A stretch of DNA of 64,000 nucleotides from a virus. Where the stretch lies: the IMG/VR virus record IMGVR_UViG_3300046007_008377, positions 5,009 through 69,008 of that record. One strand, written 5' to 3'. Position numbers and translations under genes: made by a program. A model generated the notes under the pieces. It saw only the letters and a list, made by a program, of their open reading frames with translations. It was not told where the DNA came from and searched no databases. Within the stretch, counting starts at the first letter, position 1. Each line of letters begins with the position of its first letter. This document shows positions 36,855 through 62,535 of the stretch, piece after piece.

Positions 36855-37829
36855 CAACAGCACCACAAACGAAACTAATAAAATCGTTAATCTACATAAA
36901 AAGTCGATGAAATACATCATTGACAAAGTAAAATCCTACAAAAATATAGTGTTGAATAGTGTAAAAGTATCGATAAATAAAGGACTTTTGAAGGTTGCCG
37001 CCTGGAATAGTGTAAATTTGCCAATTAAAGGAAAGCAGCAGACACAAAACAAAGGACCAAAACACAATCCAACAACACCGGGGAACCTGAAGACACAAAA
37101 ACCACGTTTTAAACGATCGTAAACATTAACAGACCGAAATATATATTTTAATGCGTTATTGTTGTTTAATTGTTTTTATATGCAACCTGGAAATATAGAA
37201 ATATATTAATTTATTATAGGATCCGTTTAAATATCTGAAATTTGCCAATAGTCAGAGCGCACCAAGGAACACCCCAAAACAAACACACAACACCATACAA
37301 CAACAATAAAAAAAAATAGCGCGTTTCCTTCACGGTTTTAAATTTCGTGATTGTCGAGTATTTTATGAAAGGTTAATTTAATTTTGTGGAGTTTTGTGCA
37401 ACCTGGAAAGGCGCAACGCTTTAAAAATCAATAATTTGCGCGAGTTTTAAACGGGATCAATAAATTTAGTTATCGGAGTAAACAACAAAGATAATTTATA
37501 ATTGATTGAAAGCTAGTAAGTTAGTGTTTTAATATACAATCGTATTAAGATTATAAATGTGAGATGAAGCAGCAGCAACCGAACATAAAAACGGCGTAAG
37601 TTTATACATAAAGGCCTGGATATCAAGTATAAAAAGGCAAAACATTTACAAAATATAATCCAAAAGAAAGGCCCCCGCCATCAAAAAAACCGTTTCCCTT
37701 TTGCCGATTGCCGCCCAGGTCCGTGGGTATAATCCCTACCTACCACATACTCTCACCACATTTAAAAAACGAACCTACAATTTCTAAAACCTCTGTAAAA
37801 CAAAGGGCTAATGCGGTATTCTATATAAA

Positions 37830-43885: not shown

Positions 43886-44188
43886 TTAAATTGATAGAAT
43901 TAAGTCCGCGTAATAGATAGTTACGTACTCAATTGCGTTTCTAGTAAGCGGATTTGCTTTGAATTTGTCGTAAATTACTGTATCGCCGAGTTTTACATCG
44001 TCTTTTGGGCATTCCGTACCCAACGAAACAACAATTCCTTTACGATATTTCTCGTTTTTGTCAACGCTTGACGAAATATTAAGGCCGCTTTGCGTTTCGT
44101 TTACGTTTTCAATTTCTTTTAGCACTACTACATAATTTAGCGCGCGACCATTAAACTTTTCTACAATTTCTTTAGTTTTTGCGTCCAT
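43886..44188 (-). CDS. groES: Co-chaperonin GroES-like
   Basis: ETQSGL, GIVVSLG, VKLGDTVIYDK, DLI; 100 aa next to GroEL. Confidence 0.8.
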   Translation of the reverse strand: MDAKTKEIVEKFNGRALNYVVVLKEIENVNETQSGLNISSSVDKNEKYRKGIVVSLGTECPKDDVKLGDTVIYDKFKANPLTRNAIEYVTIYYADLILSI

Positions 44189-45748
44189 TTAATTAGCGTT
44201 TTGAATTAATCTAGCATTTGTGAGAACGTTGTCAGTCATTAGCATTGTATTACTTGCAGAAACAGCGTTAATTAAGGCGTGTTTGATTGCTTTTGTACTA
44301 TCCACAATTCCCGCGTCAAACATATTGGTTTTTTTGTAATTTTTTACGTCATATCCGATTGGATAATCTCCAATTGCTTGTCTAACTTCTCTTAAACTTG
44401 CGTTTTCCATTAATTTATTAATTGGAGATACACAAACTGTTTTGCAAATATCTCCTAATTCTAATTTTGAAGCGTCAAATAAAGCAATTCCTCCGCCAGC
44501 AACAACTCCTTCTTCTTTTGCAGAACGAACAGCAGAAACAGCATCGTCTACACGATCGATTTTTTCCTGCAATTCACTTTCGATAATTGATCCGATTTTA
44601 ATAATAGAAACACCGCCTACTAATTTAGCAATTCTTTCGCGCAAATACTTTTCTTCTACTTGGCTTTTGGTAGTTTTGATTGTTTCTTTTATTTCAGCAA
44701 TTTTACCATCTACAATTTTTTGAACATAATCGTTTTTTACCGAAGTGATAATTGTATCGGCTTTACCAATGATAATTTTTTCACATTCGCCAATAAATTC
44801 ACCTTCTCTACCTTCAAAATTATCTCCAGACAAAGTAGTAATTGGCTGCGTTCCTAAAATACAAGCAAGGTCATTGATAAAATCAAGACGTTTTTTACCA
44901 ACTCCAGGCGCGTGAACAACACAAAACGGTACGCCTTTCTGAATTACATTTTGAAGCACTACATCTCTAACTGCATGTGCCATATCGGAAATAAATACCA
45001 GCGGTCTTTTGTTGTCGTGTGCATATTGCATAAATGGAAGCACTTGTTTTACCGTTTTAAATTCAATAGTAGAACAAACTACAAGCGGATTTTCGTCAAA
45101 AACACAAGTTCTATCAGAAAACACGTTTACAAATCGCTCGTCAGAATATCCTGATTCTACGAGTGTTCCGTCTATAAATTCTAGGTAAGATTCATCTGTA
45201 TTACTACGCGAATGAGCAACAGAACCGTCAACCCCTGCTTTAATATATGCTTCACTTACAATTTTTGCAATTTCTACATCGCCATTGGCAGAAGTCAAGG
45301 CTACATCATAAATTAATTTGTCGGTAATTGGAGTTGATATACTATCTAAATGCGCTAATATTAAATCTCTTGATTCTTCAACTTCTCGCTTTACATCAAT
45401 TGGCGATTTTCCATTTTTTACAGCCTCAACCGAATTTTTGAAAAACGCATAAAGTAAAATAATTGTATTTGTAGTGCTATCTCCTGCAAATTTTACAGTT
45501 TTTTCACTTGCTTCTTTAGCAATTTCTAAAGCAATATTTTCTACTGGATTTTCTAAAAAAATTGATTGGAGTGTTTTGTAACCATCTTTAGTAGGCTCGG
45601 CTCTACCATAATCAGATTCGATAAGTACCGTTCTTCCTCGATAACCGTAAGTAGAAGAAACCACATCAGAAGCTTTTTTAAGACCTGACAATAACAAGTC
45701 TTTTGCATCATCACCAGAGATAATGTCTTTTAAAATTCTTTCGCTCAT
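44189..45748 (-). CDS. groEL: Chaperonin GroEL-like
   Basis: TKDG, AGDSTT, SANGD, ERIAKL, DRVDDAVSAVRSAKEEGVVAGGG, AGIVD. Confidence 0.95.
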   Translation of the reverse strand: MSERILKDIISGDDAKDLLLSGLKKASDVVSSTYGYRGRTVLIESDYGRAEPTKDGYKTLQSIFLENPVENIALEIAKEASEKTVKFAGDSTTNTIILLYAFFKNSVEAVKNGKSPIDVKREVEESRDLILAHLDSISTPITDKLIYDVALTSANGDVEIAKIVSEAYIKAGVDGSVAHSRSNTDESYLEFIDGTLVESGYSDERFVNVFSDRTCVFDENPLVVCSTIEFKTVKQVLPFMQYAHDNKRPLVFISDMAHAVRDVVLQNVIQKGVPFCVVHAPGVGKKRLDFINDLACILGTQPITTLSGDNFEGREGEFIGECEKIIIGKADTIITSVKNDYVQKIVDGKIAEIKETIKTTKSQVEEKYLRERIAKLVGGVSIIKIGSIIESELQEKIDRVDDAVSAVRSAKEEGVVAGGGIALFDASKLELGDICKTVCVSPINKLMENASLREVRQAIGDYPIGYDVKNYKKTNMFDAGIVDSTKAIKHALINAVSASNTMLMTDNVLTNARLIQNAN

Positions 45749-45784: not shown

Positions 45785-45890
45785 TCATTTTGAAATTTGA
45801 TAACCAAATGTTTATACACTATCAATTTTAATTATTACTTTTGTTGTTATAATAGATAAAAAAATGTTTAAATAATAAAAAAAACATACA

Positions 45891-46679
45891 ATGGCAAAAT
45901 GGGATTTTAAAATAGTCGGGGCTTCTTTTGTAAAAGAATTGATTCCAATTGACGGAGATGTTGAGTTTCGTTCTCAGTCGTTTATGCAGCCTAGCTTTGA
46001 TTTAGAGGGAGATAAAATTGTAATGAAAGAAAGCGGTAATTACAAATCAGCAATTCTTTTCCCTCAAATTGGTGAAATTGACGGAGTAGTTCCTACAGAT
46101 CTTGAAGACGCTTATGCTAAACTTTTAATTTTAGTTGAAAATTTTAATCAGGGCGGGGGGTCGCCCGGAACAACCCCAAAAATATTTACAGCTTTGTTAT
46201 CACAAACAGGAGAATCTGATAAACAAACTTTATCTAGTGGCGCCGTAACTAAAGGTGTTTCATATAAAATAGATGGCGCTAGTGATGGCGATTTTTCAAA
46301 TGTAGGAGCGCCAAATAATGACGATTTAACTTCTTTTATTGCAACAATAAATGGAGTTCCTAATAGTTACGGAACTGCTGAGTTAACATACGACCTAGGA
46401 GCGCCAGTAGCAATAGTGTTAGAAAACACTATTGGAAATATTTGGTTTGAATATAGACTTGTTGGAATATATAGAGCTTGGTCAGATAATTTATTTATAG
46501 AAGATAAAACTGCAATAAATATAGATGCTTTTAGCTATATAAATATAGCAAACTATCCTGCTATTGCAAATGAAACTTTATTTTCAGAAAATAATTTTGA
46601 TATATCTACAACTTTATCAGGATCGCCTAATGATGATTTATTAGTAAAAAATAGATTAGAAATAAAAGTTTATAATTAA
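45891..46679 (+). CDS. Structural (fibre/decoration-like) protein with candidate -1 frameshift
   Basis: N-domain paralogous to 46703; C-domain paralogous to 61918. Confidence 0.55.
   Translation: MAKWDFKIVGASFVKELIPIDGDVEFRSQSFMQPSFDLEGDKIVMKESGNYKSAILFPQIGEIDGVVPTDLEDAYAKLLILVENFNQGGGSPGTTPKIFTALLSQTGESDKQTLSSGAVTKGVSYKIDGASDGDFSNVGAPNNDDLTSFIATINGVPNSYGTAELTYDLGAPVAIVLENTIGNIWFEYRLVGIYRAWSDNLFIEDKTAINIDAFSYINIANYPAIANETLFSENNFDISTTLSGSPNDDLLVKNRLEIKVYN
46139..46177 (+). promoter_or_regulatory. Candidate programmed -1 ribosomal frameshift (A_AAU_UUU plus H-type pseudoknot)
   Basis: Heptamer 46139-46145, 5-nt spacer, GGGCG/CGCCC and GGGGT/ACCCC stems; -1 frame stop TAA 46145-46147. Confidence 0.6.
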
Positions 46680-46702
46680 TATTATAATAAAAAACACGCA
46701 AA

Positions 46703-48751
46703 ATGGCAAAATGGAATTTTTTTGCAACTAATAGTTCTTTAATAAGAGAGTTAGACACTTCTGGAGACGATGTAAATCCGCAATCACAATCTTTTTTAAC
46801 CCCGACTTTAGATTTACAAGGCGCTAAAATTGTATTTAAAGAGGGTGGTTTATATAAAACCGCAATTTTATTTACGGAAATAGGCACAATTGACGGAGTT
46901 AACCCTACAGATTTGCAAGACGCTTATGATAAAATAATCGCTTTAATTCCTAATTCAAGTGGCCCATCAAGTTTTCCAAATTTAACTGAAGTATTAACAC
47001 AAGGAGATAGGGTATGGTATCAAACGGCAGATAATTATGTTTTTCAAGGTGTTGATATAGCTACGTTTATATTGAATAATAACAATGCAGGAACTCCTAT
47101 TTTTACTATTGATGGAGATTTAGATAATGATTTTCCTATTGACTGCGTTTTAAAATTTCAAGCTTGGTTACAACCTAGTCAATTAGAAGCTATTAACGGA
47201 GCTTTAATTTATGTTCAAGGTAATGGTGGTTCTTTAACTACTTACAATTTTAATGTTGGAGATTATTGCGAACTAAAAAAAGTAAATGTAAACAGTTGGT
47301 TTTTAAACGTTTCAAATGCAATAAGCACTCCAATACCAACAAAAACATCAGACTTAATAAATGATGGAGATAATGGTACAAGTCATTTTATATCTTTAGA
47401 AGATTTACCAAGTACACTTACACTTTATCCTACAACAGCAGCGTCTGGTATTGGTGGTTATAATAAATTAGTTTCTTCTATTACAGACCCAGATTACAAT
47501 ACTACAGCAGTAGATGTATCAACAGGTGCTATTACAGGAACAGACCAATTGATTGCTGGGTTGATAACAGATGCAAACCAAATTGTTGGTAATCCTGGTG
47601 TGTTTAATATGACAACTATTGGAAACATTAGAAAAACAAGTGGTTCTGGACAAGCTGAATTTTTCTTTAGAGTATATAAGAGAGATGCTGGTGGAACAGA
47701 AACACTAATCTTACAATCAGACAACACGCAACAAATTACATCTGCTATTTATGCTGAGTTCAATGCAAGTGGTTTATGGAATGATGGTGTATTTATATCA
47801 ACAGATAGAATAGTAATAAAGTTTTATGGAACAAAAGTAGGTAGCGGTTCAGCCCCAACTTATGATTTTCAATTTGGTGGAACAAACCCTGTAAGAAGTA
47901 TAGTTCCAGTACCTTTAACAGTTATTCCAGTTTTATCTTTAGATGAACTTAGTGATGTTACTATTACAAGTGTAGCTAACAATCAATTATTAGCTTACAC
48001 TTCTGCAACTGATCTTTGGCAAAATAAAAACCTAATTGATGTACTTGAAAATTTTAATACAACTCAAGGAATTTATTTCTTTGAAGATTTTATGGGTAAT
48101 TTAGCAGCCAATATAACTAACACTACTACTGGTATTATTACAAATGTTGGTAATGGGCAAGGAACTACAAGAAGTACATCAACTATAAACAACAAAACAA
48201 ATCAACAAGGTGTTGTAGAAGCATTAACATCTGCTAATGCAACAGGTACTGCGGGTTATTACTATGCAAGTGGCGTTTATAAAGGTTCTGGTTCAATTAC
48301 CATAGAAACATATATAAATTATACAAATCTATCAGTTTTAGGAGAAAGATTTTTTAGTTTATTTGGATTTTATACTGGCGTAAATTTTACTAATCCGCCT
48401 AACGCTATTATGATTGTTTATGATGAAGGAGGGGTAGTTACACCTAATGCAGCATCACCTTTTTTTAGATGTGTTACAAGAATAGGTGGTGTAACACTTA
48501 CAAATACTGTTACATCAATTCCAGTAGTTGCGTTACAATGGTATAGGTTGAAAATAAATATAAGTGCAGATGGAGGTACAGTTACATTTTTTATTGATAA
48601 TACTTTAGTTGCAACACATACAACAAACATTCCTTTAAACGCAACTTTTTTACCAGTTGGATGTATGTTGCAAAAAACATCAGGAACTGCTGCAAGAGCA
48701 ATGCAAACAGATTATTTTATGTACAAAGAAACATTTACAACAGCAAGATAA
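46703..48751 (+). CDS. Tail fibre/receptor-binding protein
   Basis: 682 aa Thr/Gly-rich, modular; KTSDLIND, LDELSDV...LWQN fibre motifs; C-terminal lectin/ConA-like domain (FFIDNTLVATHTTNIP). Confidence 0.7.
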   Translation: MAKWNFFATNSSLIRELDTSGDDVNPQSQSFLTPTLDLQGAKIVFKEGGLYKTAILFTEIGTIDGVNPTDLQDAYDKIIALIPNSSGPSSFPNLTEVLTQGDRVWYQTADNYVFQGVDIATFILNNNNAGTPIFTIDGDLDNDFPIDCVLKFQAWLQPSQLEAINGALIYVQGNGGSLTTYNFNVGDYCELKKVNVNSWFLNVSNAISTPIPTKTSDLINDGDNGTSHFISLEDLPSTLTLYPTTAASGIGGYNKLVSSITDPDYNTTAVDVSTGAITGTDQLIAGLITDANQIVGNPGVFNMTTIGNIRKTSGSGQAEFFFRVYKRDAGGTETLILQSDNTQQITSAIYAEFNASGLWNDGVFISTDRIVIKFYGTKVGSGSAPTYDFQFGGTNPVRSIVPVPLTVIPVLSLDELSDVTITSVANNQLLAYTSATDLWQNKNLIDVLENFNTTQGIYFFEDFMGNLAANITNTTTGIITNVGNGQGTTRSTSTINNKTNQQGVVEALTSANATGTAGYYYASGVYKGSGSITIETYINYTNLSVLGERFFSLFGFYTGVNFTNPPNAIMIVYDEGGVVTPNAASPFFRCVTRIGGVTLTNTVTSIPVVALQWYRLKINISADGGTVTFFIDNTLVATHTTNIPLNATFLPVGCMLQKTSGTAARAMQTDYFMYKETFTTAR

Positions 48752-53004: not shown

Positions 53005-55155
53005 ATGACAAAAATAAAAAACACCGTTGCATACACTATCAAAAGACCGTTGGCTCTTACTGATTATGCTATCGGTACTAATTCAGAAAATTTAGGCGTA
53101 GGAATGGCAAAAGACCTAACTATTTCTATGCAATTAATAGATATTAGAGACGCTGTTCTTGCGGGACTTTCTCCAGATATTGGTGGCGAATTAAAAATTA
53201 ACGAAATAGAATATAATGGAATATTAACATCGCCTTCTGCCGTAGCAAACGCTTTAGATCCAGTTTATATAGTTTCTAATTATGAGGTTTTAATATTTAA
53301 CGTAAACGGTAAAAGATACCTTTTAAAACTTCAAGGCGTAACTATTGGAGACGGAGAATCAAGCATTTCCGATTCTGATTTTATTACTATTGTAGCAATA
53401 CAATCTACAGGACTTGACGTTACCGCTAGTGGAGATAATACTGTAATTGAAAGCAAAGCAGGCGTTAATGTTGGAAGTGATGGAGTAAATATTTACAAAG
53501 GGCTTAATGCAACTTCTAAATTGCATGAATTTAGAAAAGCAAAATCGGTAGGATTTGACGTAACTATTGACGCTGATGGAGTAAAATTTGAAAAAAAGGC
53601 AGGAGTTAATTTAGGAAATGGAATACCGGTTTATAAAGGATTAAACGCAAGTACAAAATTAGACGAATTTTACAATTTAAAATCTTCTACTTTAAATATT
53701 GTAAAAGAAATGTCTGGAGGAAGCGAAACAGGTAATATTACTATAAACACTCCTACAACTGCAACTATTCCTGGGCTATACGTAAACAATCTTTACGGAC
53801 CAACTTATGAAGATTGGGTAAGTGGCGGTGGAAATTTAATTTCAAACCCATCATTTTTATACAAAGGAGAAGGAAGTCTTACAAGACCTTTTACCGACAG
53901 CAGAAATTATACTTCAGCAACAACATTTGTTGACACAGCAAATACCGCTATTCAAAACGCTTTAGAAAATTATGTAGGGGCAACTCCTTTAACGCCTGCT
54001 AAATTAGGTCAACAAATTATCGTACAAAACAATACAACAGGATATACTTTTCCAGGAGATTTTAATTACTCAGGACTGAACATTAAATTAGAAGCAAATG
54101 TTTTATCTACAAATTCAGGTTATATTGTAGACATGGACAATGCTTTAAGATTTAATAATGCGTCAGATTCATGCACTTTTACAATTGACCAAAACGTAAT
54201 TTTAGTAATTCAAGGCGATGGTTTTAAAAACAACGGAAATACAGTATCTACAAGTAATCAATCATCTTTTAGACAAGTTAGATTATTTGGAGCAGGTTCA
54301 GTAACTTCAACAGGAAATACTATTTCAAAATACATTTTATCGTCTGATGTTAGCAGCACAGGAAACGGAACTACAGGCTTTAATAATGACGGAGCTTGGC
54401 AATTTGAAGTAAGATGTTCTATAAATTCAGATTTTCAAGGTATTTACAAAATTGGCGGAAAAGGTCGTATTTATTCATTTGGCGGAAGTTTCCGAAGCGG
54501 AAATGTATTTACAAACGTAAACACTTCTTTAGAGGCTTTTTATCAAGGCGGTGGCGTTGTTGCGTTTTTTGAAGATACTTTTTTACAAATATATGGCGGC
54601 GCGTCAACATTAAGAGATATTGCGTTTCAATTTGTACCGACTAATGGATTTACTCCTGAATTTAATTCTAATTCTGCTAATCTTATAGGAAACGCGGTTG
54701 TTATTTTCAATAAAAACAATTCTAATAATGTTACTTTTTCGCTTGTAGGAAGTCAAAGCCCTAACATGTTTTGTACATCTATTTTTGATTCTACTAACTT
54801 ATGGCAAGTTAGTTTTAAAAATAATATTTTTGGATCAGGATTAATAGATACGACTGTTGCGGATTTAACGCTTGGAAATAACGTTTCTAGCACAAATACA
54901 ATCGGAAATTTCTTAGTAGAAACATTAGTGTTTTTTGATAGTAGACAAACGGCCAAAAATTTCAACTTTCCTGTAAATTCAGCTTTTTTAATAAAAAGAG
55001 ATGTAAGTGCAGCTAATTTGTTAGAAGGAGTAGAATATAAAATAAAAACGGCAGGTAGTCCATCTTTAGGGACTGTTGGAAATTTTATAATTGCAACTGG
55101 TTCGGAAACAGGAACAGGAGTTGGCGTTTTCAGCGAAAGATGCGTAATGATATAA
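53005..55155 (+). CDS. Tail fibre/spike-like structural protein
   Basis: 716 aa; tandem repeat KAGVNxG...YKGLNA...L.EF; Gly/Asn/Thr-rich beta-helix-like C-half. Confidence 0.6.
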   Translation: MTKIKNTVAYTIKRPLALTDYAIGTNSENLGVGMAKDLTISMQLIDIRDAVLAGLSPDIGGELKINEIEYNGILTSPSAVANALDPVYIVSNYEVLIFNVNGKRYLLKLQGVTIGDGESSISDSDFITIVAIQSTGLDVTASGDNTVIESKAGVNVGSDGVNIYKGLNATSKLHEFRKAKSVGFDVTIDADGVKFEKKAGVNLGNGIPVYKGLNASTKLDEFYNLKSSTLNIVKEMSGGSETGNITINTPTTATIPGLYVNNLYGPTYEDWVSGGGNLISNPSFLYKGEGSLTRPFTDSRNYTSATTFVDTANTAIQNALENYVGATPLTPAKLGQQIIVQNNTTGYTFPGDFNYSGLNIKLEANVLSTNSGYIVDMDNALRFNNASDSCTFTIDQNVILVIQGDGFKNNGNTVSTSNQSSFRQVRLFGAGSVTSTGNTISKYILSSDVSSTGNGTTGFNNDGAWQFEVRCSINSDFQGIYKIGGKGRIYSFGGSFRSGNVFTNVNTSLEAFYQGGGVVAFFEDTFLQIYGGASTLRDIAFQFVPTNGFTPEFNSNSANLIGNAVVIFNKNNSNNVTFSLVGSQSPNMFCTSIFDSTNLWQVSFKNNIFGSGLIDTTVADLTLGNNVSSTNTIGNFLVETLVFFDSRQTAKNFNFPVNSAFLIKRDVSAANLLEGVEYKIKTAGSPSLGTVGNFIIATGSETGTGVGVFSERCVMI

Positions 55156-56720: not shown

Positions 56721-59372
56721 ATGAAAAATTTATCTCAAGACCTTGAAGTAGCTATTTCAAATGCTATTGAAACTCTTGGTTTTTCCGTTGACATTGACAA
56801 AGTTAATTCTGAAAAGCTAGAGGCTTTAATGAAATCGAAAGCAGATTCGTTTTTATACACAAAAGAATTAATTTTAAGTTGGGAAAATTCCTTAAATGCC
56901 CCAAGCGATAAAAAATTATACAAATACATTACAGACCTCGTAAAAGCAGGGGAAAGTTCAATTATAGATTTACGTCTTGCTTTAAGAAAAAAAATTGATA
57001 CCGATTTAGTTGATGTAGAAAAAATCGGAGTAAGTATCAAAGCAAAGCAAATTATTTACAAAGCTATTACAGAGCTTGATTCGGGATTGATTCAATTAAA
57101 AATGCAATTGCAATCTAATTCTATAGACTTAAAACAACGCGAATTTAAAATAGGTTACCCAGAGCGATTTGCTAATCAAGAATTTTATCCTAAAAAAGAT
57201 TATTACAAAGAATGGTACGATGAAAAAAACGATTGTATTATTCTTGACCCAAAAGGAACTGTAGGAGAAATTATAGTTTTAGACAACTTACGATTAGCAT
57301 TACCTATTGTTCCAAAAAATAAAAAAGACATTTTATTTAGTGATTTACCAAAGGAAGAACAATATTGGCGAAGAATTGACCCGCCTAAGGGATTAATGCC
57401 AGAAACCGAAGACGCTTGGTCTACATATATATTAGAAGAATTTCGCAGACGTAGAGAAGGCGTATGGTTTATGAATAATGGCAAAGCAGAATGGCTTACT
57501 CCAACGCATTACATGGGGCTACAATGGAACCGCATGCTTGATACTGGAGGATTTAAAGAATTTCGTTTAGCACAAAGAGACATATATTATTTTTGCCTTG
57601 CAGTAATTATTGACCCAAGAGCAGTTGGTATATTATTCTTGAAAGGACGTAGAACAGGATTTACCGAGGTAATTCTTGACCATTTTGAAGATTTTTCTAC
57701 TTCTACTAAAAATGCTTTATTTGGAATTACTTCAAAAACAGGTTCAGATGCTTCTGAAGCGTTTTTAAAATATTCTTACGGATTGCAAAACCAACCTTTC
57801 TTTTTTATTCCGGTAGTAAAAGGAAAAATTGACGATAGAAATAAAATGGAGTTTGGCAAAGTTTCAGATTCCTCAAAAGTTGCTAAAAAGAAAAAAGATA
57901 CCTCAACCGATGATTATTTAAACACAAAAGTAGATTGGCTAAACACTACTACGCTATCGTATGACTCTAAAAAATTATTCATGTATCTTGGCGACGAAGC
58001 AGGAAAATGGGAAAGACCAAATAATTATGAAGACCATTGGGCAAATATAAAACCTACGATGATTACAGGAGGTAGAGTTGTAGGAACGGCATTTATCGGA
58101 TCAACAGTTGGCGCTGTAGAAAAAGGCGGAAAAGAATTTAAGAATTTATATTACGGATCTAATGTTTCAAAAAGAAATTCCAATGGCAGAACTACTACCG
58201 GATTGTATTCTTTTTTTCTTCCTGCTCATAAAAATTACGAAGATTATACAGATAAATACGGCGTTTGCCATATTACTGTAAATCCAGGAGAACATTTTTA
58301 TAATGCTCAAGGAATAAAAATGACAATTGGTTCATTGCAATATCTTGAAAACGAATTTAAGTCTGCAAAACAAATGGGCGGTAAGCACCATAATAACGTA
58401 AGAAGATTAGACCCTGTTACAGTTGATGATGCGTTTAGAGATGAAAGCAAAGGTAGTTTGTTTGATTTAGATAAACTTAATGACCAAATTGCCCATAACA
58501 ACAATATAGAAATTGAAAACACATTAGTACGAGGTAATTTTGAATGGGAAGGTGGCGTCAAAGATACATCTGTTGTTTGGAGACCAAATAATAAAGGAAG
58601 GTTTTTGATTGCTTGGTTACCGCCAAAAGAACTTCAAAACCGTTTAATTGAAAAAAACAATATGTTTGGCGGCAGAAGTAAACACCCATTAAACGAAGAT
58701 TTAGGTTGTTTTGGAGCAGATACTTATGATATTGACGCTACGGCAGGTGCTAAATTAGAAAACACAGAAAACGGCTCCGAATTTGATTCTGGATCTAAAG
58801 GCGCAATTAGCGGCGTTACCAGTTTTTCAATGAAAAATGTTCCAAGTAATTTCTTTTTTTTAGAGTATATTGCTAGGCCACAATCTGCTGAAATATTTTT
58901 TGAAGACGCGCTTATGGCTTGTGTTTTTTACGGCATGCCAATTCTTATAGAAAGCAACAAGGCAAGAATGTTATATCACTTTAAGAATCGCGGTTATAGA
59001 GGTTTTTCTCTTAGCAGATTTGACAAAGAGACAAACAGACTTTCACCAACTGAAAAACTACTTGGTGGCATTCCTTCAAATAGCGCTGACGTAATAAATA
59101 TACATTGGACCGCAATTGAAGCATACGTAAATAAATATGTTGGGTATTACGAGCAAGGCGATGATTTAGTTCCGATAAGAGAAGAAAATGAAGTAGGATC
59201 AATGCCTTTTAATAGAACATTACGAGATTGGTCAAAATTTAATGTAGGAAAACGTACAGATTACGATATTTCAATTGCTTCTGGTTACGCATTAGTCGGA
59301 GTTAATCGTAAAAGTTACAAACCTCAGCAATCAGAAAGAAAAACTTTAGATTTTAAAATCCGTACATTTTAA
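56721..59372 (+). CDS. terL: Terminase large subunit with about 150-aa N-terminal extension
   Basis: LKGRRTGFT (Walker A region), YLGDEAGKW (Walker B), GST, GADTYD nuclease Asp, LIESNK, DISIASG. Confidence 0.85.
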   Translation: MKNLSQDLEVAISNAIETLGFSVDIDKVNSEKLEALMKSKADSFLYTKELILSWENSLNAPSDKKLYKYITDLVKAGESSIIDLRLALRKKIDTDLVDVEKIGVSIKAKQIIYKAITELDSGLIQLKMQLQSNSIDLKQREFKIGYPERFANQEFYPKKDYYKEWYDEKNDCIILDPKGTVGEIIVLDNLRLALPIVPKNKKDILFSDLPKEEQYWRRIDPPKGLMPETEDAWSTYILEEFRRRREGVWFMNNGKAEWLTPTHYMGLQWNRMLDTGGFKEFRLAQRDIYYFCLAVIIDPRAVGILFLKGRRTGFTEVILDHFEDFSTSTKNALFGITSKTGSDASEAFLKYSYGLQNQPFFFIPVVKGKIDDRNKMEFGKVSDSSKVAKKKKDTSTDDYLNTKVDWLNTTTLSYDSKKLFMYLGDEAGKWERPNNYEDHWANIKPTMITGGRVVGTAFIGSTVGAVEKGGKEFKNLYYGSNVSKRNSNGRTTTGLYSFFLPAHKNYEDYTDKYGVCHITVNPGEHFYNAQGIKMTIGSLQYLENEFKSAKQMGGKHHNNVRRLDPVTVDDAFRDESKGSLFDLDKLNDQIAHNNNIEIENTLVRGNFEWEGGVKDTSVVWRPNNKGRFLIAWLPPKELQNRLIEKNNMFGGRSKHPLNEDLGCFGADTYDIDATAGAKLENTENGSEFDSGSKGAISGVTSFSMKNVPSNFFFLEYIARPQSAEIFFEDALMACVFYGMPILIESNKARMLYHFKNRGYRGFSLSRFDKETNRLSPTEKLLGGIPSNSADVINIHWTAIEAYVNKYVGYYEQGDDLVPIREENEVGSMPFNRTLRDWSKFNVGKRTDYDISIASGYALVGVNRKSYKPQQSERKTLDFKIRTF

Positions 59373-59464: not shown

Positions 59465-61906
59465 ATGGATAACGATAAAAAAGGCTTGACCTTATCTTCA
59501 ACAATAGCTTTTCCAAGTCAATTGGACTCGTTTGAAAACAAAAAGAAACAGTCTTGGGGCTATCAATTAGCACTCGCTATTCAAAACGAATGGTTTTTTG
59601 GCTACAATATTGCAAATCAGCAAATCAGTAAATTTTATACACAACGAAACCAATTAATAGAAAGAAGAATGTATGCTAAAGGTCTTCAAGACATGAAGCA
59701 ATACATGAAGCAATTTGAATCTGAAGGAGATAAGTCATTTTTAAATTTATCTTCAAAGCCAATTTCTATAATTCCTAAATTAGTCGATGTTGTTGTAAAT
59801 GGAATGTGTGACAGAGGATATTCTGTTAGAGCAACTGCTATCGACCCTGCTTCCACAAGTAATAGAATTGCTTACAGAAAAAAAATAGAAGATGACCAAT
59901 ACGCAAAAGATTTTATTGTTGCTGCTCAAGAAAAGTTAGGGGTAGATGTTGGTAATTTGCCAATTGACCAAATTCCAGAGTCTAAATTAGAATTAGACTT
60001 ACACATGCAGCTAGAGTACAAACAGTCAATAGAAATTTCAGAAGAATTGGCTATAGATCAAATATTTAAAGAAAACAGATTTGAAGATACAATTGACAGG
60101 CAGATAAAAAACGATTTGACTGTATGTGGAGTTGCATGGGTTAAAAATAAGTTTTGTCCAGATAGAGGTATTCTTTTAGAATACGTTAATCCAGAAAACA
60201 AAATACAATCATACACAGACGATCCTTTTTTTAGAGATTGTTTTTACCATGGTGAATTTAAAGTTGTGCCAATTAGCGAAATTTTAATAGAATTTCAATG
60301 GTTAAACGACCCAAAGAACGAAGAAAAGAAAGAGCAATTAGCAAGTTCGGCAGTTCAATGGTGGGATTACCATAGAATATCACAAGATCAAAGAATAAAA
60401 GGTACAACTAACGTACTTTATTTTACCTACAAAACTACAAGAGACAGAGTAAAAAAAATAATTGATTTAGATTCTGGCGCTAAAGAAATTAGCGAATTTA
60501 CAGAAGGTAAAAACAAGAAAAAAGATTTTAGAAAATATAAAACTACAACTGTTGCTGAAGAAATTCTTTTTGAAGGAGCTTTGGTTTTAGGTACTGATAT
60601 TTTGCTTAAATGGGAAGTTTCTGAAAATATGTCTCGCCCAAAATCAAACAAGCAAAAAGTAATTGACCAATACATTGGAAAAGCGCCAAATAAAGAAAGA
60701 GGATATATTGATTCTCTTGTTGCTAGAATGATTCCAGTTGAAGACAAATTAAATGTTTTAGAATTAAAGGCCGAGCAAATTATTCAAAAGATACAACCTG
60801 ATGGATTTATTATTGATCCAGATGCACTTTCCGAATTGGATTTTGGCGGCGGAAACGTGCTGACTGTTCAGAACATGGTCGATATGTTTTGGCAAACAGG
60901 TAGTATTTTTGCAAGAAGTTTTGGTGCAAATGGCGATCCAATGTACAGCAAACCAATACAGGAATTAAGAACTGGGGATTCGTTAAATAAACTTCAATCA
61001 TTAAGAGTAGAAAGAGCAGGTTATTTAGAATTAATGCGAGATGTTATTGGTTTAAACAGAGCTTCTGACGCATCAAATCCTGATAAAGATTCTTTGGTAG
61101 GTATTCAAAAATTGGCTGCATTAAACAGCAACGTAGCGACTAGACATATTTTAGATAGCGCAAAATACATTACCAAATTAACCGCAGAAGCAGTAAGTTA
61201 TAGAATAGGCGATTTGCTAAAATATTCGGACTTAAAAGAAGATTTTGCAAGAAAAATTGGCGCAACTGCCGTAATGGATTTAGAAGAAATAAAGCAATTG
61301 CATTTGTTTGAGTTTGGAATATTTATTGATTTGTATTTAGACGCAGAAGAAAAAGCTAAATTAGAAGCAGATTTGTCTAATGAAATTGCTAGCGGAACTT
61401 TAAGTTTTGCAGATAAATACAAAATATTATCTATTCCTAATTTTAAGTACGCTGTAAACTACGCTTCTATTTTAAGAGAAAAGAGAATGAAAGAGATGCA
61501 GAAAAGAAAAATGGAAGAAATTCAAGCGCAAGCTCAAGCAAATACTCAATCAGCGCAAGCGGCAGAAGGTGCTCGTTTGCAAACAGCGCAAGCTATTGGA
61601 CAAATTGAAATGCAAAAACAAGAAATGGTTAATCAAGGATTAATTGCCAAAGAACAAGCCAAAGGAAACGAAGCTAGACAGACAATTGAGGCTAAATTTC
61701 TTGGGGACTTTCAAATTGCTCAATTAGAAGCAGGTATTCAAGGCGATAAAGTTAAATTTATCGAAGATAAAAAAGACGAAAGAATTACAAAACAAGCTTC
61801 TCAACAAAGCAAAATGATTGAGCAAAGAGCAAAAGAAAAAGAACCTATTGATTTTGAAAACGAAGAAATTAACGATGATATTTTTCAATTAAACGACGAA
61901 CTATAA
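59465..61906 (+). CDS. Portal protein
   Basis: 813 aa after TerL; IIPKLVDVVVNGM, RDVIGLN, LVGIQKLAALNSNVATRHI, Gln-rich C-terminal barrel helix. Confidence 0.85.
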   Translation: MDNDKKGLTLSSTIAFPSQLDSFENKKKQSWGYQLALAIQNEWFFGYNIANQQISKFYTQRNQLIERRMYAKGLQDMKQYMKQFESEGDKSFLNLSSKPISIIPKLVDVVVNGMCDRGYSVRATAIDPASTSNRIAYRKKIEDDQYAKDFIVAAQEKLGVDVGNLPIDQIPESKLELDLHMQLEYKQSIEISEELAIDQIFKENRFEDTIDRQIKNDLTVCGVAWVKNKFCPDRGILLEYVNPENKIQSYTDDPFFRDCFYHGEFKVVPISEILIEFQWLNDPKNEEKKEQLASSAVQWWDYHRISQDQRIKGTTNVLYFTYKTTRDRVKKIIDLDSGAKEISEFTEGKNKKKDFRKYKTTTVAEEILFEGALVLGTDILLKWEVSENMSRPKSNKQKVIDQYIGKAPNKERGYIDSLVARMIPVEDKLNVLELKAEQIIQKIQPDGFIIDPDALSELDFGGGNVLTVQNMVDMFWQTGSIFARSFGANGDPMYSKPIQELRTGDSLNKLQSLRVERAGYLELMRDVIGLNRASDASNPDKDSLVGIQKLAALNSNVATRHILDSAKYITKLTAEAVSYRIGDLLKYSDLKEDFARKIGATAVMDLEEIKQLHLFEFGIFIDLYLDAEEKAKLEADLSNEIASGTLSFADKYKILSIPNFKYAVNYASILREKRMKEMQKRKMEEIQAQAQANTQSAQAAEGARLQTAQAIGQIEMQKQEMVNQGLIAKEQAKGNEARQTIEAKFLGDFQIAQLEAGIQGDKVKFIEDKKDERITKQASQQSKMIEQRAKEKEPIDFENEEINDDIFQLNDEL

Positions 61907-61917
61907 AAATAAATAAA

Positions 61918-62535
61918 ATGGCAACAATCAAATTAAAAGATGAAAGTGAAAAATCCTTTTCAATAGACGGGATTTCTTACACAAAAGGAGATTACAGATT
62001 GCAGTACAATGCAAAAAAACAAATTTTAATAATTCCTAAAGCAGTAGCTAATTTATCAAATTTATCAGGGCTACCATTTAAAACCCCTATGGCTTGGACT
62101 TATTTTGTAGACTTAAATGACGAACCATACGCTTCTTTTGAGGAATTTTCATTAGCAATTTCTGATGCTATAAATTTTAATTCGGGTGAAGCGACACCCC
62201 AATATAAAGTATACTCAGCTTTAATTAGTCAGTCAGGTACTAATGCTCCTACATTAGTTGTATTACAAAATACTTTAGAGCAAACCGTTACTCCTAACGC
62301 ATATAGTTCGCCAGGAAGATATTCATTATCTGTGTCTGGTAATATTTTATTAAATAATAAAACTTGGTATACTATTACAAATGATAATAATAACAGAACA
62401 ATTGCGTATATAGATAAGTCAAATTCTTTAGGAAACACATCTATTGTTACAATTGATACTTTTAGTTTTATATCGTCGGCGTATGGGGACGGCATTTTGC
62501 AATCTACCCCTTTAGAAATAAGAGTGTATAATTAA
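61918..62535 (+). CDS. Structural protein with candidate -1 frameshift
   Basis: C-domain YKVYSALISQSGTNAP...LEIRVYN paralogous to 45891. Confidence 0.55.
   Translation: MATIKLKDESEKSFSIDGISYTKGDYRLQYNAKKQILIIPKAVANLSNLSGLPFKTPMAWTYFVDLNDEPYASFEEFSLAISDAINFNSGEATPQYKVYSALISQSGTNAPTLVVLQNTLEQTVTPNAYSSPGRYSLSVSGNILLNNKTWYTITNDNNNRTIAYIDKSNSLGNTSIVTIDTFSFISSAYGDGILQSTPLEIRVYN
62172..62199 (+). promoter_or_regulatory. Candidate programmed -1 ribosomal frameshift (A_AAU_UUU plus hairpin)
   Basis: Heptamer 62172-62178, 5-nt spacer, GGGTG-aagcga-CACCC; -1 frame stop TAA 62178-62180. Confidence 0.55.

Follow-up and report, generated by a model that had tools for sequence, protein, structure and literature searches.

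A putative truncating -1 frameshift cassette at the module junction of phage tail-fibre-like genes

Can a single phage tail-fibre-like gene supply two proteins by releasing some of its ribosomes early? This question is raised by gene 45891-46679 of a 64-kb stretch of phage DNA (64,000 nucleotides; 'the window' below means this whole stretch), taken from a 69-kb IMG/VR record, IMGVR_UViG_3300046007_008377, that is rated complete by CheckV. A sequence-only reading of this DNA had proposed that a slippery heptamer, an H-type pseudoknot and an immediate stop sit together at the end of the N-terminal domain. Our comparison with relatives points, with moderate confidence, to a conserved, dnaX-like truncating -1 frameshift cassette made of a heptamer and a hairpin, with no pseudoknot, that would give an anchor-only protein from a fibre gene. 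The phage probably makes this anchor-only protein beside the full fibre by ribosomal frameshifting.

The features at the first site are:

45891..46679, + strand: fibre-like gene 1, 262 aa, with an N-terminal module (N-module) at residues 1-~86, a Gly-rich linker and a C-terminal domain (C-domain) from ~97
46139..46145, + strand: slippery heptamer A_AAT_TTT in the zero-frame X_XXY_YYZ register, read from the sequence
46145..46147, + strand: -1 frame stop TAA, read from the sequence
46146-46150: spacer of 5 nt
46151..46166, + strand: hairpin S1, GGGCG (46151-55), loop GGGGGT, CGCCC (46162-66), the minimum-energy structure
46157..46177, + strand: proposed S2, GGGGT (46157-61) with ACCCC (46173-77), drawable, not conserved
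45891..46147, + strand: predicted -1 product, 85 aa, ending ...LVENF
46703..48751, + strand: fibre gene of 682 aa, a paralogue that shares the N-module and lacks the cassette, junction ...ALIPNSSGPSSF...

The junction of gene 45891 reads GTT GAA AAT TTT AAT CAG GGC GGG GGG TCG CCC GGA ACA ACC CCA. The layout that had been proposed, with the heptamer in register at 46139-46145, a 5-nt spacer, a GC island and an immediate -1 TAA at 46145-47, is borne out by the sequence. So is its placement at the end of the N-domain: the N-modules of gene 45891 and of open reading frame (ORF) 46703 are 55% identical over residues 1-84 and divergent thereafter. Relatives of gene 45891 cover either residues 1-86 or residues 97-262, in different proteins with different partners. 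An AlphaFold2 model gives residues 1-86 a predicted local distance difference test score (pLDDT) of 88-95, as seven strands and a helix (71-86) that terminates at the slip site. Past residue 89 the pLDDT is below 50, and the C-domain model was not interpreted. A Foldseek search of the PDB with the N-module returned nothing at E<=0.001, the top rows being weak, PH-domain-like matches (TMt ~0.4) that do not count as evidence, and a search of BFVD gave weak matches only (best E ~0.006), to uncharacterised phage proteins.

We propose that the cassette comprises a slippery heptamer (here A_AAU_UUU), a spacer of 3-6 nt and a short GC-rich hairpin, at the end of an N-module of ~85 residues. Some ribosomes would pause at the hairpin, slip one base back on the heptamer and stop immediately at UAA. 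This slip would free the N-module alone, as 85 aa ending ...VENF from gene 45891 and as 87 aa ending ...AINF from gene 61918, a second candidate described below, while the remaining ribosomes would finish the full protein. In this way an anchor-only protein and an anchor-plus-receptor-binding protein would come from a single gene, much as gamma and tau both come from dnaX. The anatomy, its conservation, the covariation at silent sites and the selected N-only genes of relatives are seen directly; we infer the occurrence and frequency of slipping and the role of the N-only protein.

The heptamer on its own is ordinary within the window and no more than chance provides. A crude set of 59 ORFs (18,202 codons) holds 256 in-frame X_XXY_YYZ heptamers, of which 17 are A_AAT_TTT, and in nine of those 17 the -1 frame stops at once. 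Writing Phe-Asn as TTT AAT creates the -1 TAA automatically, and it is present at every TTT AAY junction. Window G+C is ~32%, and the GC island of the first site is one of only three stretches in the 64 kb with a 20-nt window at 75% G+C. The fold of the 40 nt after the heptamer ranks second of 242 in-frame heptamers at the first site (-11.6 kcal/mol) and twelfth at the 62172 site (-7.9 kcal/mol), the median of 1,728 coding windows being -2.9 kcal/mol. The top fold among the 242 (-13.3 kcal/mol) follows an in-frame A_AAT_TTA at 53088-53094, near codon 28 of a 716-aa ORF (53005-55155) without family matches. ORF 46703 also contains an A_AAT_TTA in register (46973-46979, CCA AAT TTA, in a PNL motif), after which the -1 frame reads AAC TGA. 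This one is probably a chance occurrence, because no stem follows it; the 40 nt past the junction of ORF 46703, slightly upstream, fold at only -0.2 kcal/mol. The significance of the heptamer comes from comparison with relatives.

The same comparison brings in the first alternative, namely that the junction is merely a protein motif with a flexible Gly-rich hinge, [NG]FN-x-GG-x-[TS]P, and that heptamer, TAA and hairpin are by-products of writing it in an AT-rich genome. We built a profile from 13 N-modules that belong to the second and third types. Run against 1.84 billion representative sequences, it reached 542 clusters (at 50% identity) with E<=0.001. Among the best 150 of these 542, the junction residues are NFN in 87 and GFN in 21, so that the [NG]FN motif is strongly conserved (108/150). 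The others are GFS (5), FFN (2, one of which, P0146, is apparently mis-assigned), NFK (2), TGKSSP (2), NFS (2), V/S/I-FN (3), N-only proteins of <=90 aa (3) and other residues (23). Furthermore, AAT and TTT are the preferred codons (74% and 89%), the -1 TAA comes for free, in-frame heptamers are common, and a similar motif, FNxGExSP, is found without the heptamer in an unrelated protein family. The members of that family (IMG/VR loci L061, L067, L135/L181, L146, L157, L170 and L186) are large proteins of 600-1,240 aa that carry FN[AGR]GE[YLI][SA]P, which is like the junction FNxGGx[TS]P, mostly in their first ~30 residues (at ~147 in L146); the residue preceding FN is S, R, N or V, and there is mostly no slippery heptamer.

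What a protein motif leaves unexplained is the behaviour of silent bases. We collected junction DNA by protein-seeded scans, by the pattern TTTAAT plus a stem, by AAT/GGT-TTTAAT plus stem patterns run on the whole of IMG/VR and by a further pattern, FY..NTG(x)FN, that set neither a third base nor a stem. In every search, the codon that precedes the heptamer's two full codons had its third base left open. The TTTAAT-plus-stem scan gave at least 114 loci, mostly intergenic, terminator-like chance matches, and the FY..NTG(x)FN scan gave 82 loci, mostly chance or unrelated. An alignment that mixed three N-module types aligned poorly and was not used. The 30 junctions with DNA fall into 18 N-module clusters (<50% identity between clusters), one of which has two states, to give 19 lineage states. 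The slippery X_XXT_TTT is kept in 18 of the 19, so the synonymous variation in homologues, which had been named as able to refute the reading by destroying the heptamer, leaves it intact in nearly all states. The sole non-slippery state is L253 (GGT AAT TTT), and 16 of 17 states conform when the two clusters with the window's own sites are excluded.

The codon before AAT TTT is GAA, ATA, GTA, GGA or GCA, and before GGT TTT it is CTG, TTG, GGG, GGG, ACG or ACG. The third base before GGT is thus G in 6/6, where ~10% is expected (10.6% of codon pairs in the same genomes); the corresponding background for AAT is that GGA makes up 52% of the Gly codons before it. By our own arithmetic the chance of six G in six is near 1e-6 and that of at least nine A in ten near 0.01, assuming independent lineages, which is only partly true. 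In one pair with N-modules ~87% identical, L110 reads GGG GGT TTT and L159 reads GGA AAT TTT, the silent base having shifted along with the next codon. L173 carries T_TTT_TTT within a ten-T run (GGT before TTT TTT). Where these patterns hit the coding DNA of unrelated proteins, the sites are mostly non-slippery (L066/L189, L160 and L186 are not slippery, L135/L181 is).

A further difficulty for the protein-motif explanation is the Tenacibaculum phage JQ (MT002873.2, coding sequence QIG62346.1), where the N-module is followed by another peptide, ...NTGKSSPQAGG, yet a heptamer, a near -1 stop and a hairpin are all present. Its junction DNA, AAC ACG GGA AAG TCT AGC CCT, contains G_GGA_AAG in register, again preceded by a rare G-ending Thr codon, and the -1 frame reads GTC TAG. 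The hairpin (GCCCUC-AAGCGG-GAGGGC, 6 bp) starts 4 nt past the heptamer and has -12 kcal/mol. The NTGKSSP peptide is also found, at the protein level, in two further representatives. From these patterns, the heptamer is selected at the nucleotide level, as far as sequence comparison can tell, and we consider the protein motif unlikely as the explanation of the junction. With a pseudoknot as stimulator, H_HH.U_UU.Y and V_VV.A_AA.R rank with the most efficient heptamers in E. coli, and U_UU.U is the third most shift-prone tetramer, according to the parts of PMC4066793 drawn on here; A_AAU_UUU and G_GGA_AAG belong to these two efficient classes.

The second element of the putative cassette is the hairpin. 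At most slippery junctions it has 5-6 bp and lies 3-6 nt past the heptamer; in L173 and L211 the stem is only ~13 nt past it. We aligned stems from 20 rows (18 distinct junctions), and every cell of stem 1 is paired. In pair 4 the partners are both silent third bases, one from a Gly codon and the other from the Ser, Ala or Thr codon preceding Pro, and the pair is UA in 10, AU in 4, CG in 3 and UG in 1, with zero mismatches. A relative that is 93% identical over the gene, from a second lake sample's contig, combines 46154 C>T with 46163 G>A, so that C:G becomes U:A. Stem covariation in homologues, which had been suggested as a check, is therefore seen as three Watson-Crick types at pair 4 of S1 and as this compensatory change, and the joint change of two silent partners is again something that a protein motif does not account for. 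Stems also occur in lineages found without a stem in the pattern, as GGGGC-N6-GCCCC (L251, L264) or with 6-8 bp (L219, L263). Another compensatory difference is found between L174 (GCUACG-N8-CGUAGC, z = -4.0) and L212 (GCCACG-N8-CGUGGC), with N-modules <50% identical. Furthermore, outside the stem these genes seldom use the codons that make it up (CCC accounts for 5% of Pro codons, GGG and GGC for 10% and 9% of Gly codons, and G stands at 9% of third positions). That such codons (CCC, GGG, GGC, NNG) are kept at the junction is likewise unexplained by a peptide motif. A downstream structure with covariation thus appears to be present, with the caveats that the stem is short and that linker coding folds readily.

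The H-type pseudoknot, in contrast to S1, does not hold. S2 is paired in only 41% of cells (18 distinct junctions), and in the 93%-identical relative 46157 G>A and 46161 T>A leave it three of five pairs. Only alleles that code ...GTTP by GGA ACA ACC CCA have S2, with three pairs left in L001. S2 may add stability in the window allele; it is not the conserved element.

A matching cassette had been noted at 62172, in another fibre-like gene of the window:

61918..62535, + strand: fibre-like gene 3, 205 aa, with a second N-module type and a C-domain related to that of gene 1
62172..62178, + strand: second heptamer A_AAT_TTT, in register, with the -1 stop TAA at 62178-80
62184-88 / 62195-99, + strand: second hairpin, GGGTG / loop AAGCGA / CACCC, 5 nt past the heptamer, the minimum-energy structure

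The heptamer, register, TAA, 5-nt spacer and hairpin of this second cassette all stand (-7.9 kcal/mol, z = -2.07 for the hairpin), while no S2 can be drawn. In a relative of this site, L048/L182, the stem is GGGAG/CTCCC. The portal gene immediately precedes this gene, and both other fibre genes are far away. Its C-domain recurs as the C-terminal end of DUF285 proteins from Flavobacterium phages and of a 670-aa protein from the Olleya phage Harreka_1.

Several observations weigh against a frameshift reading of this junction. One is the strength of the [NG]FN peptide motif, and the FNxGExSP likeness in an unrelated family, as given above. The cassette is also missing from ORF 46703, L051/53/54/55, L175, L218, L227, L253 and Harreka_1. 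In the type-1 group of 119 proteins, 64 have ...LVENFN, 54 have no FN (a poly-Gly or other linker instead) and one has an off-register KFK. Recombination may carry the junction block from one fibre gene to another, in which case the lineages are not fully independent. Where the heptamer is G_GGU_UUU, it is outside the high-efficiency E. coli class, at least in the portion of PMC4066793 available to us. With 5-6 bp and -8 to -13 kcal/mol the stem is a small one, and comparison with shuffled sequences gives the main stem type weak z-scores, between -0.04 (first site) and -2.65, which are not used as support. Since 11 of the 20 aligned rows came from patterns that fix four of the five pairs, pair 4 alone is a free test of the stem in those rows. 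Finally, GC-rich Gly/Pro linker coding folds anyway: members without the heptamer fold near the junction as well (L055 -9.9, L175 -11.9 and Harreka_1 -14.7 kcal/mol), as the protein-motif explanation would have it. A strict co-occurrence of heptamer and hairpin, suggested by L253, L218 and L227, which lack both, is weakened by such heptamer-less members that still fold in the linker.

A second alternative is that the GC-rich block is a DNA-level recombination linker for swapping C-domains, conserved by repeated copying. The C-domains of L001 and L002 are common past the linker and their N-modules are different; therefore the junction is a module boundary for domain exchange, and such shuffling exactly at the junction is what a linker of this kind would produce. 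Relatives of the C-domain bear many other N-termini. The N-modules of win1 and L002 differ at ~55% of silent sites (dS ~0.98), compared with 0 differences in 12 same-residue junction codons. The 93%-identical relative has five differences in a 15-nt junction stretch against four in the 250 nt upstream, which looks like an allele swap. Recombination, however, requires sequence identity and not an XXX-YYY pattern or base pairing. Stem sequences vary by lineage with the pairing kept, and the codon before the heptamer varies at its first two bases and not at the matching third. We think a recombination linker quite improbable in place of frameshifting, with which it is compatible; both can hold simultaneously. 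The protein motif and the recombination linker each explain part of the data, and neither explains the matching silent base or the G_GGA_AAG of phage JQ.

The G run of the junction suggests a third alternative, in which it is a slippage-prone tract for DNA-level phase variation of the C-domain. Hypermutable poly-G tracts are found in the fibre genes of Campylobacter phages. The run has six G at 46155-46160, and seven in L002-type alleles, either of which is short for such a tract. In L056, the run is one G shorter than in the L002-type allele and for this reason the frame stops after ~100 aa; P0007 is the same truncated protein. L056 is a single metagenome contig of 1.1 kb (1,098 nt), on which a relative of gene 45891 at 516-818 has a product ending ...NFNGGGGRPEQPQHFSK*, and it could reflect a real poly-G indel or a sequencing error. 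Most lineages are without any G run, e.g. GGGTGGAGCGACACCC, and zero length variants were found in four sequencing runs, as judged from contigs, which hide rare variants. We regard phase variation as highly improbable.

A different line of evidence for the frameshift reading comes from relatives that encode the N-module on its own. An N-only ORF (82 aa where whole) that ends at the junction is found in L050, L052 and L055, although in L055 the contig begins inside it. The ORF of L050 and L052 ends ...AYDKITAII or ...AYDKITTII, and the gene order is a GroEL-like gene, the N-only ORF, 10 nt and a full 46703-type fibre gene. The N-only ORF therefore takes the slot that gene 45891 has in the window, L002-L005 and L049. 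The two ORFs differ by a dS of ~1.0 (silent sites near-saturated) with a dN of 0.11, and are maintained genes under purifying selection. Further N-only proteins are P0002, P0003, with 15 member sequences, and P0006, which occurs on 10 contigs of up to 8.9 kb. Among other N-module types, P0117 (81 aa), P0133 (84 aa) and P0137 (85 aa) are candidates that are possibly cut by contig ends. P0159 (85 aa, on a contig of up to 68 kb) ends exactly at ...FYTENTGNF, the end of the predicted frameshift product. Its protein sequence suggests a zero-frame stop directly after the heptamer, with possibly five T rather than four; a long form might be made by a +1 shift, or the gene might be broken. The window genome has no separate type-1 N-only gene (its two type-1 matches are both in fibre genes). 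As expected for a dnaX-like system, the -1 frame stops at once, or after one codon in phage JQ, and the short product corresponds to a gene under selection in relatives, to which a function may be ascribed.

Taken with these genes, the original interpretation is partly supported by comparison: heptamer, register, spacing, stem, -1 stop and N-only genes in relatives support it, and the pseudoknot is lost.

What kind of protein does the N-module head? In the best 150 of the 542 clusters the match begins in the first five residues in 147, the exceptions being P0032, P0110 and P0152, and it spans ~75-100 residues of proteins 81 to 1,609 aa in length. Among the C-parts are a beta-helix in P0010, a GDSL esterase in P0130, the tail-fibre PHROG 5668 in P0052 and the tail PHROG 4900 in P0009, and three genes inside the window have N-modules. 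With fibre-type C-parts and sharing among genes both found, the N-module appears to head phage tail-fibre or tailspike-like proteins. The architecture suggests that it is the part that attaches to the virion. A good comparison is with P22-type tailspikes, modular receptor-binding proteins with a conserved N-terminal head-binding domain. The proteins described here share the short conserved N-module, the linker and the swappable C-terminal domains; they differ from such modular receptor-binding proteins in having an N-module without a match in Pfam, PHROGs or PDB (E<=0.001). In the lactococcal phages Tuc2009 and TP901-1, virions hold full-length and truncated forms of Tal, which cleaves itself at a Gly-rich site. 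There too a Gly-rich junction gives long and N-terminal-only chains, by proteolysis rather than by recoding.

The frameshift form of the carboxysome protein CsoS2 is the shorter one. Truncating -1 frameshifts are known from dnaX and from carboxysome cso2, as set out in the sections of PMC5009743 used here. Likenesses to E. coli dnaX are the heptamer and downstream stem-loop, a near-immediate -1 stop and a short product that is the N-terminal part, with both products used. Other bacteria make the short dnaX product otherwise (PMC5009743, in part), which parallels the separate N-only genes described above. The differences are that dnaX has the heptamer A_AAA_AAG and an upstream Shine-Dalgarno-like stimulator, none being evident here, whereas our candidate has a much shorter stem, is in a phage structural gene, would slip after only ~85 codons and is known from sequence. 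The cso2 case is alike in that the frameshift concerns a structural protein and is predicted in part of the family, in 79/162 species according to the same sections of PMC5009743; it differs in being a cellular gene with a more complex stem-loop and an unrelated protein. Among phages, the G/GT-type chaperones of lambda and 10A/10B of T7 also have conserved -1 slips, U-rich heptamers and a two-form ratio, according to the excerpts of PMC10885494 and PMC12846349 consulted. Those frameshifts extend the protein past a stop near the 3' end, whereas the putative one here truncates it at the first domain boundary. The sequence-only reading had called this truncation the reverse of known phage frameshifts, and within the literature searched we found no contrary report, nor any account of a tail-fibre gene truncated by frameshifting.

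The wider context of the window is as follows:

43886-45748, - strand: GroES-like (100 aa) and GroEL-like (519 aa) gene pair, named from the translations, with no family search
56721-59372: large terminase gene
59465-61906: portal gene

The GroEL-like gene adjoins the first fibre gene and has 82-89% identity across all related contigs. DNA near-identical to the window is present in lake-water metagenomes, and none of the sequencing runs listed with it is an RNA run. We infer that the host is a Flavobacteriia-like bacterium, because the only cultured phage having the N-module infects Tenacibaculum and because the C-domain recurs in Flavobacterium and Olleya phages. Database searches were otherwise sparse: tblastn with gene 45891 found nothing at E<=0.001 in GenBank phages, the three window fibre proteins have no match in Pfam and PHROGs, save a weak PHROG (function unknown) for ORF 46703, and an Rfam scan of 45800-46800 found no match at E<=1. 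Two GC-rich islands lie elsewhere in the window (37703-37729 and 62474-62493, the latter near the 3' end of gene 61918; 20-nt windows >=75% G+C). They are not tRNA genes, because ARAGORN found zero tRNA in the whole window.

Frameshifts that stop at once are hard to find computationally because no second reading frame betrays them, a point made in the passages of PMC5009743 that we used. Silent-site covariation and separate N-only genes in relatives would be what exposes one here. A cultured phage with a version of the cassette, Tenacibaculum phage JQ, makes the reading directly testable. It is possible, and we put it forward only tentatively, that in hundreds of clusters of receptor-binding proteins, mostly from phages of Flavobacteriia-like hosts, a truncating -1 shift sets a fixed ratio of anchor-only to full protein. 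If this is true, fibres or docking sites would be mixed assemblies, for example solving a symmetry mismatch or sparing sites for other fibres. A separate N-only gene would then meet the same need in other lineages, and the reversed layout of P0159, with a stop after ...NF and a long form made by +1 on UUU_UAA, might also serve. The GC-rich block at the exchange point of fibre modules would be explained. Current annotation would be missing an abundant structural or assembly protein of ~9.5 kDa in many phages, and a recoding event would be added to the receptor-binding genes of phages.

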